Assembly: GCA_963733195.1 (NCBI GenBank)
Contig: CAVTCR010000063.1
Span: 1 to 64,000 of the forward strand
Direction of reading: 5' to 3'
Source of the DNA: an uncultured delta proteobacterium
GTDB lineage: Bacteria; Desulfobacterota; Binatia; Bin18
Length of the DNA stretch: 64,000 nucleotides
Shown here: in pieces, positions 31,142 through 40,281 of the stretch
Numbering within the stretch: position 1 is the first letter of the stretch
Layout of the letters: every line of letters begins with the position of its first letter
Program-made: the position numbers and the translations under genes
The notes under the pieces: model-generated
Database searches by the model: none
What the model saw: only the letters and a program-made list of their open reading frames with translations
Told to the model about the DNA's origin: nothing

Positions 31142-34100
31142 TCAGTATTCCTTCTGCTGTTTGATGATCAGGAAAATACGCTCCACCTCGGCCACGTCCT
31201 GCAAGATGTTATACAAGGCTTGCTTAATCACCCGTTCACGCGGTTCAATGCCGCGCCAGCCGTCAGGTCGGACGCGTTTGACAGTTTCATCGATCTTGAT
31301 GGCCAGTGCAAGCACATCCTCTTGTGTTGTCTCCTCGTGAATAGCAGGTGTTTCATCTACACCGCTCGTGCGTCCAGCACTTGCTTGAGGTTGTTATACA
31401 AGGCACGTCTGCCTGGCGTGTTCAGTTGTTCCGGCGTCTCCTCGGCCTTGCCAGCTTCTACTTGCTTGGCTAGCTCGGCGATCCGTTTGAGGTATTGTTC
31501 GTACTCCAGCGCCTTGGCTTTCCGGGCAGCGATGATCTCATCCAGCAGGGCGGACATTTTCTCGTAGTAGGCTGGGTCGTTGAGATGTTCCTTGATGATC
31601 TTGCTGCGGACGTTGTTCTCAATGGTTTCAGCCACTGCTTCCCTGTTCGCTCTCAGTCTACTTGGCAGGGAGTTGATGGCATTGGTGATGCCAGTGTTCA
31701 CAATCAGTTCCAGCAACGACATCTTGTCGAAGGGCGAGATGGTGCGCGGCTCTGCGGCTTCGATATACGTGTCGATGAGATGCCGCATATCTGCCTCGTA
31801 GGCTTTCAGGTCGAGCTTTTCGTTGGCAGCATTGCGGATGATGTCGCGGAGATCGAGGTACTCTTTAAGCTTTTGCTTGATGTAACGAACGTCGGCCTCG
31901 CTGTAGCCAGCGGCGTCCAGTTCGTCGGCAATGTTGGCGTAGGCACGCACCAATGCGACGGTTGCCTTGTAGAGCGCGGCACGTTGTGGCTCGCGTGCCT
32001 TCAGGTCTTCCGGGAGTTCGGTATTACCACAGAAGTAATGAATATACTCTAGCTCGCCCTTGGGCGGTTCCACAGGCTCGCAGAGCAGCGCCAGGGCTTC
32101 CAGCGCGTTGTCGAGTCGCTCGCGACCTTTGGCAAGGCGATTGTTCATCAGGACTTCGGGATCGGCCCCGCCCGCACTGTGATCCAGCTCGGAGGTGTAG
32201 ACCTGAAGGGCACCGGTGCCTTCCTCATTGACCAGTTTCTTGAACAGGTCCTTGTAATCCACGATGTAGCCGAATTCTTTATCCTCCCCGTCCAGCCGAT
32301 TGGTGCGACAGATCGCCTGGAACAAACCAGTGATCCTGCATACTCTTGTCAATGTAGAGGTAGGTACAGCTGGGCGCGTCAAAGCCGGTGAGCAGCTTGT
32401 CTACGACGATGAGGAGCTTCATGTTGGCCGGTTCTTTCTTGAACAGCTCCTTAGCCTTTTCCTCGTAGGTTTCGGTCTTCGTCATGCCGGGCTTGGCGTC
32501 GATGTTCTTCAGCAGTTCGGTGTAGGTGCTGTAAATAAACTCTTTGTCCGTCTCAGTGTTCGCGCCGGTGTCTTCGGTGGTGATGTCACGCGTCTGCGGA
32601 TTGTACGAGGTGACGACCGCGCAGCGGTCCCTGAAGACCGTCTTCTGGAAGAGCGTGTAGTACTTACAGGCTTCGTAGATACTCGACGCTACCAGCATGG
32701 CGGTGCCGCGGTTGTCGCTGAGGCGCGGCTTGACGCTGAAGTCGAAGACGATGTCGCTTACCACCCGTTCCATACGCGAGCGCGAACTGAGCACCTTCTG
32801 CATCGTGCCCCACTGCTTTTTCAGTTCGTCTTTCTGCCAGTCGTTGAGCCCTTTGGTCTTGGCCTCAAACCAGGCGTCAATCTTGCTCTGCGAGCCGAGA
32901 TGCTGGTCAATATCCCGCGCCTCATAGACCAGATCGAGCACCACCTCGTCTTCTACTGCTTCGCTGAACTTGTAGGTGTGGATGTACCCGCCGAAGACTT
33001 CCAGGCTGGTCTGCTTGTCCTTCTTGAGCAGCGGCGTGCCGGTGAAGCCGATGAAGACGGCATTAGGCATGATGGCCTTCATCACGCGGTGTAGCTTGCC
33101 GCTCTGGGTGCGATGGCATTCGTCGACGAAGACAAAAATCTCGCCTACTGTCTGGCTCGGCTGGGCTTGCAGTTCCTTGATGAACTGCTCGAAGTTGTCC
33201 ACGTCCTTCTTGCCGAACTTATGCACCAGGGAACAGAGCAGGCGCGGCGTGGCCTGCCCCAACTGGGTCATCAGCTCGCGCCCGCTTCTGGTCCGCTTGA
33301 TCGTCTCGCCTGTCTCGGTGAACACGTCTTCAATCTGTTTGTCCAATTCGTCACGATCGGTGACGATTGCTACACGAGCGTTGGGATTGTTTTCCAGAAT
33401 CCATTTGGCCAGCAGCACCATGACGATGCTTTTGCCGCTGCCTTGCGTATGCCAGATGATGCCGCTCTTGCGTTTGCGCACATGCTGCTGGGCGGCTTTG
33501 ACGCCGAAATACTGGTGCACGCGCGGCAGCTTTTTCATCCCGCCATCAAACAGCACGAAGTCGTGCATCAGCTCGATCAGCCGCGCTTTGTTGCACATCT
33601 TGAGCAGATACTTGTCGAGCTTGAAGCGACTGTTGTCTTCTTCGTCCTCTTTCCACTTGAGGAAGTACTTCTCTTCGGTGCCAATGGTGCCGTATTGCAG
33701 ACCTTCGGAGTCGTTGCCCGCGAAGATGAACTGCACGGTGCTAAAGAACCATGCGTTGAACTCGGGTTGCTGGTTGGAAATGTTCTGGCGGATGCCGTCG
33801 CCAATCGTAATGCTGCTGTTCTTGAGTTCCAGCACGCCTACGGCGATACCATTCACATACAGCACGATGTCAGGCCGCCGTTCGTGATTGCCGCGCAGTG
33901 TGACTTCTTCAGCGATGGCGAAGTCGTTCTTTTTCGGCTCCTTCCAGTTGATGAGATGGACGGTTTCGGTGACTTTGCCTGCTTCGATCTTCACCTGGCA
34001 CGCCATAGCGCAGCAGGTTGTACACGGCCTGATTGTTGCCGTACAGGCCGCGATTGTGATTGTCTGCCTCGGTGCGGAGTTTGTAGAGGGCGCTGCTGAT

Positions 34101-34276
34101 CTGTGCTGGGGTGTATCCACACTTTGTGAGGTAGGTCGTGAGCAACTCTTCCTCAATGTTGCTGTTGCCGTCACGGTCGCGTCCAATCGCCGAGGTAGCG
34201 ATAGCCGAGTTCATCGCGGAACAGGGCGATGACGCGGTTCTGCGTGGCGCGTTCAGGTTGGCCGATGTTACTGCAT
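31142..34276 (-). CDS. hsdR: type I restriction endonuclease subunit R (frameshifted in this sequence)
   Basis: [54 protein letters not shown]; pieces 33909-34331, 32279-34186, 31357-32382 and tail to 31142. Confidence 0.93.
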
Positions 34277-35623
34277 GATGGTCGCCTTTTACTTGCCAGT
34301 GGCCACCTTTGGCGGGGCCGATGCGTTGCAAGACCCCGTCAGACTTGAGTTTGGCAATCTGCTTCTCTACTCCACGGGTAGACAGTCCAAGCTTCTCCGC
34401 GAGTTCAGGAATGGTGATACGAGGATTCTCGCGAACGTGACGTATGATTTTCCCCGAACTTTTCCCCGAACTTTTCCCGAACTATCACCGAATTCGTTCC
34501 GGGTAATTTTCTGGGTAGTGTCCACTCGCGTTGGAAACACCACCCACAGTCCCCCATGTTCAAAGCGGAACTCCGGCGGGGACGCACCTTCCACCCTGCA
34601 GGCATTCACAATATGCTCGATCCCGCGTCCCCATAATTCGATCATCCCCGCGCGGAAGAACGCATTTGCCACATCCGGGTTATACGGTTTGGACGAATGT
34701 TTTCCTGTGAGCGTTTCCACTGTCCATCCTTCGTGGAGTTCACCGTCGTTCCAGAGCATGATCTTGTCTTCATATACACTGATCTGAATGGGTGCACCGC
34801 TGCTGTAATCCTTGTGAGCGACGGCGTTCAGTATCGCCTCGCGCAACGCTTCCTCCGGCACAGGGTACGTCTCCACGCGTTGTAGTCCTTCGTAGGAAAT
34901 CATCGCCTTCAGATACTTTGCTAGCAAGATTTCCATTGTCTGATTCACCTGCGTGAAGAGATCGCCGTGAATTTCATCGTGGTAGAGCAAATCGGCGTTC
35001 GTACGGAAATAGCCGATTTTCACATACGCCCCGGTGAAAAATCGCTCCGGGTCTGGGTGAAACAACAACACCGCCGCCCGCTTCAGATATGTGCCATCCA
35101 TCAGGTGCAGCTTGTCAATCAGAACGGCATCTGTCTCTTCCAGAAGCTCGGCTGACAAGCGCTTGCTACGCGTAGCGCGTTTGCGGAAATACGCCAGCGC
35201 CCGCTGATCCAAGTCTGCCAGCGAGACATACGGTACGGGCGCATCATCCCAATGCCGCCCCTGTTTGCGCATCAGAAAACGGTGAAGCGCCGCGCCCTTC
35301 AACTCCTGCTTGGTGCTGCCACTGCGGTAATGGTATTCGCCTTTGTAACTGATTGGGCTGGGGTACGGTTCCACCACGATTTCCAGCCAATCCTTGCCCC
35401 GTTCGGTGTGCAGATTCACCTCGACCATGATACCGAGAATGTCGCGCACCTGGTTCGGAATGTCCCCCAACAACTTCGCCGCGTTGTCTACACCAACAAC
35501 CTCGCCCCGGTCATTCTTGCCGATCATCAGCGTACCGCCCTGGGCATTGGCGAAGCCGCAAACCCACTTCAGGTATTCATCTCGCCAGTGCTGTTTCCAT
35601 TCGATGTGCTGATGCTCCTTCAT
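34270..35623 (-). CDS. AlbA_2 (Schlafen-like) + HATPase_c_4 + C-terminal HTH protein
   Basis: [52 protein letters not shown]; HTH tail [10 protein letters not shown] after a frameshift. Confidence 0.88.
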
Positions 35624-35628
35624 AATAG

Positions 35629-35684
35629 TGGAGAATGGAGAGTTGAAAATTGAGAATTGAAAATGGAGAGTTGAGAATGGAGAA
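35629..35684. repeat. 8 tandem heptamers T(T/G)GA(G/A)A(A/G)
   Basis: TGGAGAA TGGAGAG TTGAAAA TTGAGAA TTGAAAA TGGAGAG TTGAGAA TGGAGAA, abutting the stop codon of the four-helix-bundle gene. Confidence 0.95.
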
Positions 35685-36047
35685 TTACGAAGTCTGCTTT
35701 GATCCTTTGGATGTTTTGACAATTGAGACCAGCAGCTTGACAAGTTCTTCACTATCAGTGCGGATGGAGGCGAAGCTCTGATTGGCGATGTATTCGGATT
35801 GATGAAGCAACTCCAGCCAGTACAGTGTCTCGTTAGCTTCTTTGAGAGCGATAGTCATCTTGTGAATAAAGTCCGCTTTGCTTTCTGCATGCTCTGCTTC
35901 CCGTACCAGCGCACCAATGGCCGTGCCACTGCGCAGTACCTGGTTCGACAGAACAAATTCTTTCTTCTCACTTTGCAAGTGTCTGGCCAGCTTCACCACC
36001 CGCAACGCAAAGGCAAATGACTTATCCCTAATGATGTTCTCCCTCAT
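35685..36047 (-). CDS. four-helix-bundle protein (23S rRNA IVP / Avd-like family)
   Basis: KSFAFALRVVKL, QVLRSGTAIGALVREA..AESKADFIHK..IALKEANETLYWLELL. Confidence 0.95.
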   Translation of the reverse strand: MRENIIRDKSFAFALRVVKLARHLQSEKKEFVLSNQVLRSGTAIGALVREAEHAESKADFIHKMTIALKEANETLYWLELLHQSEYIANQSFASIRTDSEELVKLLVSIVKTSKGSKQTS

Positions 36048-36157
36048 TCTTAATTCCCATTCTTACTCTTCCATTTTTAATTCTCCATTTTCCATTTTCA
36101 CTTCTCCATCTCAACTTTCCACTTCTTCATTCTCAATTCTCCATTCTCAATTTTCCA
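36048..36157. repeat. about 15 degenerate heptamers, complement of the 35629-35684 array
   Basis: ...TTCTCAA TTCTCCA TTCTCAA TTTTCCA, filling the whole gap between the hsdS stop and the four-helix-bundle start. Confidence 0.9.
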
Positions 36158-37860
36158 TTAAACAAGCCTGACTTGTCCGGTGAGTAACACGTGCATCATG
36201 CCCTGCTTGAGCTGGCGGGCTTTGGCGAGCTTGGCTTCCAGCGCGTCGATCTCGGCGTCCATGTCGCTCAAGACCTCGGCAATGGCTTCTTGTTCGGAAC
36301 GCTAGGCGGGTGAAGGAATTACAAATCTTGCGAGATCTTGCGCCCGAGATTAGGCTGAGCTGCACCACCAGACCATTTTCTATCATCCGTGCACACAGGT
36401 TAGAATTGAAGTAATAACTCAGATAGTCAGTACGGAGACTGGCTGACTTAGGGCGAACAATTACCAGAGAGCTCGCGATTGCACCTTCGCCGAAATCTGG
36501 ACCAACGATTCCGAATTTGCCCAACGAACCGCGCAAACAGAACAGTATGTCCCCAGGCTTAAACTTCCCGCCGCCAAGGCGGTCATAGCTCTCTCTAGTG
36601 ATGTAGTCTAGTTCACTGCGATTGATATGACCTTCTGCAACGTGGCCTGCGTTAACGAAAGGGACTCCACTACGTGCGAATGACACTGATGATGGGTAAT
36701 TTTTTCCTCGATCCCCATTTTCGAAGACGCAAGTCTCGCTAAGCGTGACATCGATCCTCTGGTACCCCGCCCGGAAGAGAACGTATGCAAACCGATCTCC
36801 TAGAGATAATGCCAGCCATGCATCGGCTCTGGAAGTGCGTGCATTGACGATCGACGTAACCGACGCGGCTAAATACGATATCACCTTCTTCAAGTGCATA
36901 TACGCTGAGCCGCTTTCATCCGCATCTGATTCCGTAGGAAGATTAGAATGTACAACTCCGCGTTCACCTAAATGCTCCACAGTGATGATCGGAGTGCCGT
37001 CCACTAAGCATAGTCGCGTTCTATGTAACGCCGAGCCAAAACGGACCCGTTTCCACATCTGTGATCTTGCCAATCGTTGCTACATTGCCAATCCTCGGTA
37101 TCTCTCCTAACTTCGCTGTTTTGTCGCCCAGTGGTTCCACTGAACTCCGATAGCCGTTTCTTCCCGGTGAGCAATTCCTGCATGGCGCCTTGTTTGAGGT
37201 GGCGTTTTTTGGCGATGAGTTGCTCAAGGGATTCAATGAGGGCATCCGCATCGCTCAAGGCTTCGGCAATGGCTTCTTGTTCGGCTTTGGTGGCGGAAGA
37301 GGAATCGGGACTGTCTCGAACTTATCTTTTGGAAGATGTGCGTATGCTTGTCTGCGTGACAAATTCAGCAGAATGCCTTACGATGCCAGACTGCTGAACG
37401 AGTATCCAAGCATCAGGAAATCATGTAGCCACTGCTTTACATAAGCGCTGCATTAGCGCCATTCTGATCAGTAAGCATGTCTATCATCTGGACTAGCCAT
37501 ATACCGTGCCAGCACGCTCCAACTTTCTGCCTGCCATCGCAACAAGCGACGATCGCCACTTCGCAAGACTGAATATCGTCTGAAGATCAGCTTCTGGCGT
37601 CATCTGATCACGCCAATATCGCTCAGGTCAATACGTCCCCAATTGACATGGCTCTGATCGCCTGAGTAAAGGCTTCGTAATACCAACGTTATTTTCACGG
37701 AATCGAGCATCTTCCTCAACTGATTTAGAACTCGTCGCCGACAGTCGAGACCTCCCAATCCTCCGGAATCACCCCCACCTCGGTCTGCTTGTAACCCGGA
37801 GGAACTAATGGAGAATTGAGAGTTGAGAATTGAGAATTGTTTTCGTTCTTCATTTTCCAT
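36158..37860 (-). CDS. hsdS: type I R-M specificity subunit (heavily frameshifted, apparently more than two TRD segments)
   Basis: PGYKQTEVG.IPEDW start, central EQEAIAEALSDADALIESLEQLIAKKRHLKQGAMQELLTGKKRL, terminal helix ending RLV-stop. Confidence 0.88.
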
Positions 37861-37873
37861 TCTCCATTCTCAA
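37809..37873. repeat. inverted heptamer arrays (4+4 units, 9-nt loop) at hsdM/hsdS junction
   Basis: TGGAGAA TTGAGAG TTGAGAA TTGAGAA - TTGTTTTCG - TTCTTCA TTTTCCA TTCTCCA TTCTCAA. Confidence 0.95.
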
Positions 37874-40281
37874 TTAAGCGAAAATCCCATTTTCGCGAGA
37901 TGGCGGTTCACTTTCTGTTCCAGCTCGGCCACGCGGCTCGTCTGCTGCGGCAGCGGGGTTTCGTAGCGTTCGGCCAGTTCCTTCACGCGCTGGGTCAGGG
38001 CCTGGCTGATACGGTCCATCTCGCCGTGGATGCGTGCATCGAGTACGGCCAGCCATTTGTCATCCACGACCAACGTCTTGATCTCGGCCTCGGTGAGTTT
38101 GGGATATTGGGCATAGGCTTTCGCATCGAGTGCGGCCTCGGCGTCTTTGAGGCGCTTCTTGAGTTCGGACTCCTGGTCACTGAGCGTTAGCCAGGCATTT
38201 AAGAACCTCGGCTTCCTCTTTGGTCTCCTCATCTTTGGAGAACAGCCCTTTGATCTCCTTTAGGCGTGCGGCGATATTAGCCTTGTTCACCTTGTCCAAC
38301 GCGGAGAACGCACCTTCCTCACCACCGTGTTCTTCTTCCATCTCAGTCAACTGAGCGGTGACGCTTTCCAGCTCGGCCTCCAGCTTCGTGATGGCTTCTT
38401 GTTCTTTGGCAAAGTAGCGAGCGACGATGAGCGGCTTCGGCACGAGATCGCACGCCCAGCCCTTGTCCTTCTCTTTGCCTTTCTTGTCTTTCTCGATGAT
38501 ACGATAGGTCTCAGCCTTCCACCCATCAGTGGCGATCAGATAGCAGTCGTCCTGCATCGTCTCGGCCCAGTAATCCATCAGGTGCTGATAGACATCGTAT
38601 TCATCGATCAGCGGCTTGCCGCTGTAGTGCGCGAGCAGGTTTTCGGAAAGGCCTTTGATGATGTGTTTGGGGTGACACTCAACCGTTAGTCCCTTGAGTG
38701 CCTTGCGTGCGTCTACGCCAATCGGCAAACAAGGCGTTCATACTATCGGTGAACGTCACAAACTCCGCGATGCTCGTAGATGGTTTGTTTTAGTTGAGAG
38801 TGGAGAATGGATAATTGAGAATAGTGGGCGCGGAGCGGCTGGAAGAGTGCGGATTTGAGTCCAGGGAGAACGGACCAATATTTTTCGAGTGCATCGATGT
38901 CGCGGTTAGGGATGCCGCCGCGCAGGTGGCCTTCGATGTCTTGAATGTCTTCGGCCTCCTGACTGTCGATGTAACGCGGAATGTTGAGGTTGTATTCGTT
39001 CTTCTCGATCTCTGCGAACGGGACCATGCGCGCATATTTGGGAATCTCTACCTGTTTGGTGAAGACATCCACAATCTTGTGAATGTCCCTCGCACGCAAC
39101 CGGTTCTTGTTACCGTCCTTCATGTAGCCCGCGCTGGCGTCAATCATAAAAATGCCACGGCGCGTGTGGGCGTCTTCTTTGTCGATGACGATGATACAGG
39201 CCGGAATGCCAGTGCCGTAAAACAGGTTCGCGGGCAGGCCAATGATGCCCTTGATGTAGCCCTTGCGGATCAAGTTGCGGCGGATGTCGGCTTCGGCATT
39301 GCCACGGAACAACACCCCATGCGGCAGAATGCATGCACCTTTGCCGTGGCTCTTGAGCGAGCGCACGATGTGCAGCAGATAGGCGTAATCGCCCTGTTTG
39401 CCAGGCGGCACACCGAAGGACTTGAAACGCTCGTGCGGATCGTTGAGCGGATCGACACCGGTGCTCCAGCGCTTATCGCTGAACGGCGGATTCGCGACTA
39501 CGTAATCAAAGGTCTTGAGGATGTCGCCATCTTTGAACTTGGGGTCAGCCAGCGAGTTGCCTTGCACGATCAACGCCGTCGGGTTGTTGTGCAGCACCAT
39601 ATTCATCCGCGCCAGACCGGACGTCGCCGCGTCTTTATCCTGGCCGTACAGCGTGACCTGCGCGTGGGCTTCATCGGCGACTTTCAACAACAGCGAGCCG
39701 GAACCGCAGGTCGGGTCATAGACGGTGGTATCGTTCGTCGTCTTGGCATCGCGGATGCCGATGATCTGCGCAATGATGCGGCTGACCTCGGCAGGCGTGT
39801 AGAACTGCCCCTTGCTCTTGCCGCTATCCACGGCGAAGTGCTGCATCAGATATTCATAGGCATCGCCGAGAATGTCATCACCGTCTGCGCGGTTCTTGCT
39901 GAAATCGAGCCGCTTATCTTCAAAGATGGCGATGAGGTCTGTTAGTCGCTCCACCATCTCCTTGCCGCTGCCGAGCTTGGTGGCGTCGTTGAAGTCCGGC
40001 ATGTCGGACAGCTTGTTGGCATTGGCCAGCGGCGCGATGATCTTCTTGTTGATCTGGTCACCGATGTCAGGTTTGCCCTTGAGCGCGACCATGTCCTTGA
40101 AGCTGGCGCCCTCGGGAATGGTGATCGGCGCGAAAGGCACGCCGGCATATTTGTCGCTGACATATTTGATGAACAACAGGACCAGCACGTAGTCCTTGTA
40201 TTGGCTGGCATCCATGCCGCCGCGCAGCGCATCGCAGCTCGACCACAGGGACGAGTAGAGTTCCGATTTCTTCAGGGCCAT
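37870..40281 (-). CDS. hsdM: type I R-M methyltransferase subunit M, long form (frameshifted)
   Basis: LRGGMDASQYKDY, GQFYTP, YDPTCGSG, ANPPF (N6-adenine), NLNIPRYI; tail LAERYETPLP. Confidence 0.95.
38794..38821. repeat. 4 heptamers in-frame inside hsdM
   Basis: TTGAGAG TGGAGAA TGGATAA TTGAGAA, read as YSQLSILHSQL. Confidence 0.8.

Follow-up and report, generated by a model that had tools for sequence, protein, structure and literature searches.

A gene-less heptamer hairpin at the hsdM/hsdS junction of a Binatia genome and its kinship with a neighbouring four-helix-bundle gene cassette

Why does a hairpin built of 7-nt repeats lie exactly where the stop codon of one restriction gene meets the start codon of the next? 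The question is raised by positions 1 to 64,000 of contig CAVTCR010000063.1 (assembly GCA_963733195.1, an uncultured delta proteobacterium of the class Binatia), a stretch of 64,000 nt that we call the window. It carries a type I restriction-modification locus on the minus strand, in the order hsdM, hsdS, a 120-aa four-helix-bundle gene, an AlbA_2/HATPase_c_4 gene and hsdR. The four-helix-bundle gene belongs to the family PF05635 and lies between inverted arrays of heptamers; hsdM and hsdS are separated by a far smaller pair of such arrays with only a short loop between them. An initial annotation of this DNA had described the smaller pair as an 'empty' copy of the larger one. Our results support the view that the hairpin is a gene-less ('solo-stem') relative of the PF05635 cassette element, and that its closest relative is the neighbouring cassette. 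Comparisons of sequence further make it somewhat probable that the hairpin descends from a gene-bearing form.

The period-7 inverted arrays and the 9-nt loop reported at this junction were recovered by both kinds of search that we used. The inverted-repeat search returned two arms of 31 nt, at 37806-37836 and 37846-37876, which are 77% complementary and separated by a gap of 9 nt. The tandem-repeat search returned a period-7 array on either side of the loop, one at 37807-37839 (4.7 copies, 88% matches) and one at 37846-37875 (4.3 copies, 82% matches). Thus the tract is short and imperfect, with four units per arm and 82-88% matches. The features of the junction are given below in mRNA sense; G000 denotes this genome (a 6.95-Mb, 93%-complete assembly), and the other G labels denote its relatives in the class Binatia.

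37870-37872, minus strand: TGA stop codon of hsdM, at its ancestral position within the first repeat unit (an invariant column against four relatives)
37846-37876, minus strand: 5' (purine-rich) arm, with the units AATTGAG, AATGGAG, AATGGAA and AATGAAG
37862-37865, minus strand: GGAG, a candidate ribosome-binding site 8 nt ahead of the in-frame ATG and partly paired in the predicted stem
37851-37853, minus strand: ATG, the candidate hsdS start, in the same frame as a tblastn match to residues 3-21 of G078 HsdS at 37805-37749
37837-37845, minus strand: hairpin loop, 9 nt separating the arms
37806-37836, minus strand: 3' (pyrimidine-rich) arm, with the units AATTCTC, AATTCTC, AACTCTC and AATTCTC, read as codons of the HsdS leader
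37800-37867, minus strand: 68-nt insertion relative to four relatives in the junction alignment (the hairpin minus its first unit)

As had been noted, the hsdM stop codon lies within the array and the purine arm leads in the mRNA. This order is uninformative on strand, because any such hairpin reads purine-first on both strands. The purine arm contains an ATG in all three frames and stop codons in two, and the pyrimidine arm is free of stop codons in all three.

Three successive KRARAAT units (at most two mismatches) were matched 21 times in the window, compared with 0.01 matches expected from 100 shuffles. All of these matches are confined to 35630-35692, 36059-36156, 37810-37872 and 38795-38822, that is, to the hairpin, both arrays flanking the four-helix-bundle gene, and one patch of hsdM. 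Thus the hairpin is real and far beyond chance, and its heptamers are of the same family as those around the four-helix-bundle gene, as the initial annotation had proposed. The full cassette is located 1.7 kb downstream of the hairpin and has three parts.

36045-36159, minus strand: purine-rich array, the 5' arm of the full cassette, beginning at the hsdS stop codon
35685-36047, minus strand: four-helix-bundle gene of 120 aa, in the loop of the cassette (Pfam PF05635, 3e-26; NCBIfam TIGR02436, 3.3e-30)
35629-35686, minus strand: pyrimidine-rich array, the 3' arm of the full cassette, ending 5 nt ahead of the ATG of the next gene

When the hairpin was aligned with the cassette (35615-36175), its 5' arm was identical to the outer 5' end of the cassette in 30 of 38 columns and its 3' arm to the outer 3' end in 31 of 34 columns; the inner 465 nt of the cassette are absent from the hairpin. 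Both elements start at the stop codon of the upstream gene (the TGA of hsdM and the TAA of hsdS). We then scanned the whole 6.95-Mb genome, on both strands, for ungapped matches to the arms. The best non-self match of the 37-nt 3' arm was the terminal arm of the neighbouring cassette (31/37), and the next match elsewhere reached 29/37; only seven matches in the genome had nine or fewer mismatches, and five of them were on this contig. For the 32-nt 5' arm, the cassette tied as the best match, at 28/32, with a locus on contig C70. Loci with GAGAAT-rich arrays number 12 in the genome, and four of these fall within these 3.2 kb. As the margin is modest and sub-families of repeats cluster locally elsewhere in the genome, these matches establish close kinship and not the route by which it arose. 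The hairpin shares with four-helix-bundle cassettes the purine-first inverted arrays of about 7 nt, the junction site at the upstream stop codon and the homologous arms. Its 9-nt loop holds no PF05635 gene, and it is therefore classed only as a gene-less derivative.

All five close relatives have an overlap between the hsdM end and the hsdS start, in an arrangement of the ATGGAAGTGA type that gives MEVKPGYKQTEVG. An alignment of the DNA with G078, G126, G134 and G150 shows a single 68-column gap in all four relatives, two bases past the invariant TGA, which identifies 37800-37867 as an insertion. No target-site duplication was found at its borders in this alignment. The initial annotation had looked to the junctions of homologues either for the presence or absence of the hairpin or for a four-helix-bundle gene at this position; the five relatives have the plain overlap in place of the hairpin, and no cassette occurs between their hsdM and hsdS.

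The insertion abolished the ancestral overlapping stop and start, and a W-to-L change directly before the hsdM stop codon erased the old hsdS ATG. New ATGs are supplied by the purine arm at 37867, 37860 and 37853, and since 7 is not a multiple of 3 they fall in three different frames. A candidate start of hsdS had been placed at 37860, with one frameshift between it and the usual PGYKQTEVG. We found that an ATG does exist at 37860-37858 and gives MENEERKQFSILNSQFSI, but that it is off the hsdS frame. The ATG at 37853-37851 reads MKNENNSQFSTLNSPLVP-PGYKQTEVGVIPEDWEV without a break, in a translation of 42 aa, and continues straight into PGYKQTEVG, so that no frameshift is required. The leader MKNENNSQFSTLNSPLVP has 18 residues, is encoded through the pyrimidine arm, and replaces the MEVK of the relatives.

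Whether the arrays belong to the cassette can be asked of PF05635 genes in general. As a measure we counted inverted shared 7-mers between the flanks of each gene; RNA duplex folding of long flanks was dropped, as it paired almost anything. In this genome, 11 hidden Markov model (HMM) matches to PF05635 fall at nine loci. Inverted arrays enclose all nine, with a separate unit at each locus, and every one of the nine scores above the 99th percentile of 5,000 placements made at random. On another contig of this genome (G000:C7:79628-79943), a four-helix-bundle cassette with GGGAATA/GGGAGAT arms apparently sits within the frame of a gene that resembles DNA methyltransferases, and an ACGSG motif occurs immediately past its downstream arm.

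Among 121 sampled genomes of the class Binatia, 27 carry a PF05635 gene. Where the gene could be placed, 15 of 22 loci (which include this genome's own locus, with its start mis-set) had at least five inverted shared 7-mers, compared with 14 of 131 controls with shifted positions. Species-representative genomes across phyla, scanned with a search built from a five-sequence alignment, gave 80 loci, 72 of them with both flanks. At least four inverted shared 7-mers were found at 49 of these 72; with direct sharing the figure was 13 of 72, and among 2,000 mismatched pairs it was 8.9%. The hosts belong to the Acidobacteriota, Planctomycetota, Chloroflexota, Cyanobacteria, Gemmatimonadota, Proteobacteria, Bacteroidota and Firmicutes, and the sites include carA/carB, the dnaK region next to dnaJ, the region upstream of prfA, atpA/atpG and E1alpha/E1beta. 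In the family of one Lysobacteraceae record, 39 of 80 genomes carry a PF05635 gene, often at accB/accC or carA/carB and with GGGAATC-like units; 14 of 30 loci in this family passed the 7-mer count, and several of the others were spoiled by stop-finding that entered the next gene.

The density of arrays in whole genomes follows a different course. In random 60-kb samples from 17 other Binatia genomes, which have 0-7 copies of the gene, arrays were at or near the shuffled background. The sample of G068, which has seven copies, was mildly raised, with 7 arrays compared with 1 after shuffling, and the others were at background. The only genome that resembles G000 is G016, which is of the same genus, has 10 PF05635 matches and contains 20 arrays in 67 kb compared with none after shuffling. 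Over these 18 genomes, which are mutually related, there was no clear dose relation between array density and gene copy number. Thus PF05635 genes are wrapped in arrays even where the arrays of the genome are at the shuffled background, which indicates that the arms belong to the cassette and are not a by-product of a repeat-rich genome.

A direction of change can be read at the E1alpha/E1beta junction, where we compared orthologous operons whose E1beta proteins are 82-93% identical. G000, G016 and G052 have a full cassette at this junction. The spacer is reduced to 151 nt in G110 and to 96 nt in G102; both arms are kept, and between them remain the first 17-33 and the last 25-40 bases of the four-helix-bundle gene. 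In G078 and G094 only the pyrimidine arm is left, and in G061, G034 and G118 there are 7-23 nt only. In genomes at a greater distance, the two genes overlap by ATGA or are separated by 17 nt. The series makes no use of the unpublished genome G087. Because both ends of the gene are kept in the loop, the direction at this junction is fixed: the full cassette comes first, its centre is then trimmed, and a lone arm follows.

The hsdM/hsdS hairpin is one of many in this genome. Period-7 arrays number 1,452, compared with 155 in a block-shuffled copy, and we found 75 distinct inverted array pairs with short loops. These hairpins mostly lie between co-directional open reading frames (ORFs; 56 of 75), with 8 in convergent and 11 in divergent settings. 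All but five of the 56 co-directional hairpins start between -44 and +53 nt from the upstream stop codon, with a median of about 2 nt. Sixty of the 75 are purine-first, 15 show no skew and none is pyrimidine-first. At least two frames are closed by the 5' arm in 44 of the 56 co-directional hairpins and by the 3' arm in 21. As stop codons are made of T and purines, a gene that runs into a purine-first hairpin is halted immediately, whichever side it comes from; this strict order might be due to selection, or else to some process by which purine-rich repeats are added at 3' ends. A complete hairpin stands on both sides of many ordinary genes, and matching hairpins flank one gene on each of the contigs C65 and C22. 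Two near-identical arrays lie 4.8 kb apart on C70, an instance of local clustering of a sub-family. Some loops (for example those of G000:C81:158951-159052 and C9:124136-124264) hold arrays of a different unit family, as if an element had landed in the loop. We searched 474 frames from 79 loops for gene remnants with an HMM of 25 four-helix-bundle proteins; the best E value was 1.2, in a search of low power on short loops. The initial annotation had tied its case to an association of such hairpins with four-helix-bundle genes and gene junctions. This association is partial: hairpins occur genome-wide and nearly all are gene-less, yet their positions are linked to gene junctions, and no four-helix-bundle gene stands outside such a hairpin.

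These results allow a wider proposal, which we put forward tentatively and regard as doubtful in its full extent. Heptamer hairpins and arrays, including the short tandemly repeated repetitive (STRR) sequences, which are heptanucleotide repeats of heterocystous cyanobacteria, the GGGAATC pairs of Xanthomonas and the 1,452 arrays found here, may be the gene-less progeny of one mobile element that crosses phyla. The full form of this element would be an operon 'intervening sequence' that carries a four-helix-bundle gene of an Avd-like kind. Its landing sites would be the positions right after stop codons or the loops of existing hairpins; it would bring stops and starts in several frames that spare the flanking genes, and its gene would then be eroded outwards from the centre. 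On this view, the full cassette and the hsdM/hsdS hairpin would be two stages of its life cycle in one operon.

Several observations weigh against a gene-bearing ancestry of the hairpin. Its 9-nt loop has no recognisable gene remnant, and none of the five relatives examined has a cassette at hsdM/hsdS. In this genome the 1,452 arrays and 75 hairpins compare with only nine gene-bearing loci, and large unit families, for example ACGTAAA, have no gene-bearing copy in the 93%-complete assembly. Elsewhere in the class, arrays have spread little or not at all in the 17 other genomes, whose gene copies number 0-7. The margin of the genome scan is small (31 versus 29 of 37 for the 3' arm and a tie for the 5' arm). 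Repeat units also change quickly. We tried to place 19 arrays of G016 in G000; nine had no collinear match, one was unclear, and the other nine fell in seven readable junctions. Arrays were present in both genomes at all seven, and in six the unit, read by eye, was different. Thus units turn over fast, and the likeness of the hairpin to its neighbour could reflect local homogenisation and not descent. In this comparison, of loci L119-L122 of G016 with C70, C62 and C12 of G000, the array sites are kept and the repeat units replaced. In addition, the mRNA-sense fold of the hairpin (-20.4 kcal/mol) is no better than its dinucleotide shuffles (z -0.71; 46 of 200 equally stable), and the opposite strand folds at -26.2 kcal/mol (z -2.5). 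The sense strand is the more stable one in 28 of the 56 co-directional hairpins (Wilcoxon p 0.43); G-U pairs thus give no asymmetry (28 versus 28) from which to judge the strand of action. As sense folds are not favoured, nothing points to selection on the mRNA. Finally, with about ten frame breaks in 7 kb, base-level reading of frames in this locus is not fully safe.

How, then, do other explanations of the hairpin compare? It might be an ordinary junction hairpin of short tandem repeats, STRR-like and comparable to those of Xanthomonas, made by slippage and strand switching or by copying. In that case four-helix-bundle genes would be occasional passengers, and the likeness to the neighbouring cassette would be due to local homogenisation. 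This explanation would fit the ratio of 75 hairpins to nine gene loci, the unit families that have no gene-bearing copy and the different units at six of seven orthologous junctions between two genomes of one genus. It would also fit the local clustering of sub-families elsewhere (the C70 arrays and the C65 and C22 hairpins), and the arrays of other families in the loops at C81:158951 and C9:124136, which suggest insertion into loops. We nevertheless find it rather unlikely, because 12 Binatia genomes with background-level arrays still have array-wrapped genes, which implies that the arrays travel with the gene and are not found by it, and because the deletion series at E1alpha/E1beta runs from full to empty. 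Another explanation places the loss at this very site: a four-helix-bundle gene would once have stood exactly between hsdM and hsdS and would have been removed by deletion of the inner palindrome. Only the outer parts of both arms are left, as expected from central trimming of a long palindrome, and another junction shows central deletions that progress to 151 nt and on to 96 nt. However, the loop retains no remnant of a gene, none of five relatives has a cassette here, and a pair of sister cassettes that share their units would need to have landed 1.7 kb from each other; we consider a scar of this kind unlikely. The term 'empty copy' thus holds for a gene-less version of the cassette, which the arm matches to the cassette ends and the E1alpha/E1beta series favour, but not for a scar at the site, where all five relatives have the plain overlap.

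It is also conceivable that the hairpin is an adaptive control of the restriction system, acting as a coupling stem, as an RNase III site that splits the cistrons, or as a slippage switch of hsdS. Phase-variable repeats occur in type I systems, and a unit of 7 is not a multiple of 3; moreover, the stop codon, GGAG and ATG all lie within the stem or loop, the 5' arm offers an ATG in each of its three frames and no frame of the 3' arm is closed. Against this, the same kind of hairpin is found at 75 unrelated junctions, a plain overlap suffices in relatives, the repeats form a short, imperfect tract, its sense RNA folds no better than shuffled sequence, and the locus may be decayed. As for a slippage switch, ATGs in several frames mean that a change in the number of units would tend to keep translation going. 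We judge adaptive control to be quite improbable and take the hairpin to be mainly a selfish or neutral insertion and not a dedicated regulator. An artefact of assembly in a long-read metagenome bin would agree with the many frame breaks of this assembly, but such an origin, judged indirectly, is extremely improbable: the same fine structure is found in 74 other hairpins of the genome and the same design in other assemblies, including those of Dokdonella immobilis and Ramlibacter cellulosilyticus, and indel errors do not make ordered 7-nt arrays with a matching inverted partner.

Based on these comparisons, we propose a model for the origin of the hairpin and its effect on the two genes. As a gene-less relative of the cassette, the hairpin may have arisen by loss of the interior of a cassette, or may have been copied from a cassette that was already emptied, by a route like that at E1alpha/E1beta. 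Stops and starts of the purine arm in more than one frame, together with an open pyrimidine arm, would explain why the insertion was tolerated. In the predicted stem, the TGA is at the foot, GGAG is paired and the ATG is near the loop. A ribosome that finishes hsdM might therefore open the stem and restart 17 nt downstream, so that translational coupling would outlive the lost overlap. More speculatively, the stem, with a modelled stability of -16 to -20 kcal/mol, could hide GGAG, and translation of hsdS would then depend on the melting of the stem by termination at hsdM. RNase III may also cut the stem, by analogy with intervening sequences of rRNA. That the hairpin controls the coupling of HsdM and HsdS, as the initial annotation suggested, is something we only infer from the positions of the stop codon, GGAG and ATG in the stem.

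An intrinsic terminator was rejected, as a terminator scan flagged nothing at the hairpin and only 4 of the 56 co-directional hairpins have six or more T in the next 10 nt. A promoter scan likewise returned nothing at the hsdM/hsdS hairpin, and no Rfam family was found between 35000 and 39000 at E values up to 1. The promoter scan does flag the arms of the full cassette at 35650-35685 and 36087-36114, because their units mimic sigma-70 hexamers (TTGAGA, 16-17 nt, then GAGAAT or GAAAAT); these matches are probably a by-product of the unit sequence.

Among known systems, the hairpin resembles the intervening sequences of 23S rRNA. These have an inverted-repeat stem, with an S23p ORF in Coxiella burnetii and Leptospira and without one in the Salmonella type; the hairpin shares the stem, and the protein of the neighbouring cassette is of the same family (PF05635/S23p) as the intervening-sequence protein. 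The Coxiella element is described as 428 nt long with a 28-bp stem, within which RNase III cuts in vitro (PMC4990558). In contrast to these elements, the hairpin occupies an mRNA, at the hsdM/hsdS junction, and none of the helices 9, 25 and 45 of 23S rRNA, its arms are tandem 7-nt units, and translation of one part of it yields the first residues of HsdS.

A second resemblance is to the GGGAATC heptamers of Xanthomonas, which form convergent pairs of arrays (70 in Xcc and 75 in Xac) between aligned ORFs and less than 50 bp from stop codons, according to the main text of that study (Rehm et al. 2015, PMC4692102). Convergent tandem 7-nt units, a position between aligned ORFs and nearness to a stop codon are thus common to both. 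They differ in that the KRARAAT units of the hairpin (AATTGAG, AATGGAG, AATGGAA) have no run of three G, so that the G-quadruplex idea put forward in that text (PMC4692102) is inapplicable here. The string '23S' has no occurrence in the main text of PMC4692102, and no link to the rRNA intervening-sequence gene was seen there. The GGGAATC-like units that flank PF05635 cassettes in the Lysobacteraceae-record family (L220-L243, at accB/accC and carA/carB) are the Xanthomonas repeat family. A literature search, with subscription-only papers outside its scope, found no paper linking PF05635 genes with flanking heptamer arrays.

Two further groups of repeats are less similar. The TAACTGA repeats of the Beggiatoaceae are reported mainly as direct arrays upstream of start codons, with one inverted case in 170 sets of the Beggiatoaceae genome (PMC4679880). 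Like the STRR sequences, which PMC4692102 also cites, they are abundant intergenic tandem heptamers near gene ends whose function is unexplained; the arrays there are direct, whereas an inverted pair defines the element here. Repetitive extragenic palindromic sequences and bacterial interspersed mosaic elements (REP/BIME) and MITEs (miniature inverted-repeat transposable elements) are also short, non-coding, palindromic and multi-copy, occur within operons, and are related to a longer gene-bearing form. In contrast to them, the hairpins have no fixed sequence, and each copy or neighbourhood has its own unit. A MITE was rejected as an identity for the hairpin, as there is no target-site duplication and the parent gene encodes a four-helix-bundle protein and not a known transposase.

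The locus joins two old puzzles, the nature of tandem heptamers in bacteria and the role of the four-helix-bundle proteins of intervening sequences. Both were first reported around 1990. A single operon displays a filled and an empty copy, relatives provide a stepwise series down to a lone arm, and the link between the two becomes testable. The locus also matters for annotation. Insertions of this kind shift start codons, append repeat-encoded leaders (HsdS gains 18 residues in place of 4) and can be mistaken for frameshifts.

The remaining features concern the restriction genes themselves. Pfam domains N6_Mtase, HsdM_N, HSDR_N and SWI2_SNF2 identify the locus, with hsdM, hsdS and hsdR domains in order. 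The hsdM and hsdS genes are recovered in several frames, as follows.

38743-40281, minus strand: first open piece of hsdM, 512 aa (Pfam N6_Mtase 4.8e-101, HsdM_N 3.8e-13)
37870-38728, minus strand: remainder of hsdM, split over two other frames (38177-38728 and 37870-38232), by tblastn with G078 HsdM
36158-37853, minus strand: hsdS, in at least four frame segments by tblastn, with alternating frames and the stop codon TAA at 36158-36160

The first piece of hsdM is 85% identical to residues 1-504 of the G078 HsdM (799 aa), whose residues 529-690 match in one frame by tblastn and 690-797 in another. The HsdM of relatives in the same class is encoded by single open frames of 804-852 aa. No match was found for the window's own hsdS pieces in a Pfam search at E 0.1; the gene was identified through tblastn and its G078 counterpart, which is a Methylase_S protein (5.2e-33). 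In all, hsdM, hsdS and hsdR (31145-40281) have about ten frame changes in 7 kb and no nonsense codons inside the matched segments. Their long matches are 72-85% identical to relatives, and the intervening four-helix-bundle and AlbA_2 genes are open. The frame breaks therefore look more like consensus indel errors of the assembly than like decay, as far as the sequence allows a judgement.

The AlbA_2/HATPase_c_4 gene and the four-helix-bundle cassette (34367-35752) are interposed between hsdS and hsdR. At this position, the closest relatives, G078 and G126, have hsdS, then directly a short ORF whose ATG overlaps the hsdS stop codon, and then hsdR, without the AlbA_2 gene, the four-helix-bundle gene or the arrays. 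A patch of hsdM at 38796-38822 consists of CATTCTC-type units that resemble the local arrays, and it encodes YSQLSILHSQLKQTI. An insertion was ruled out for this patch, as distant HsdM homologues are equally long there and as close relatives without arrays are already 7-nt periodic at this point, encoding YSQLSTHHSQLKQTI.

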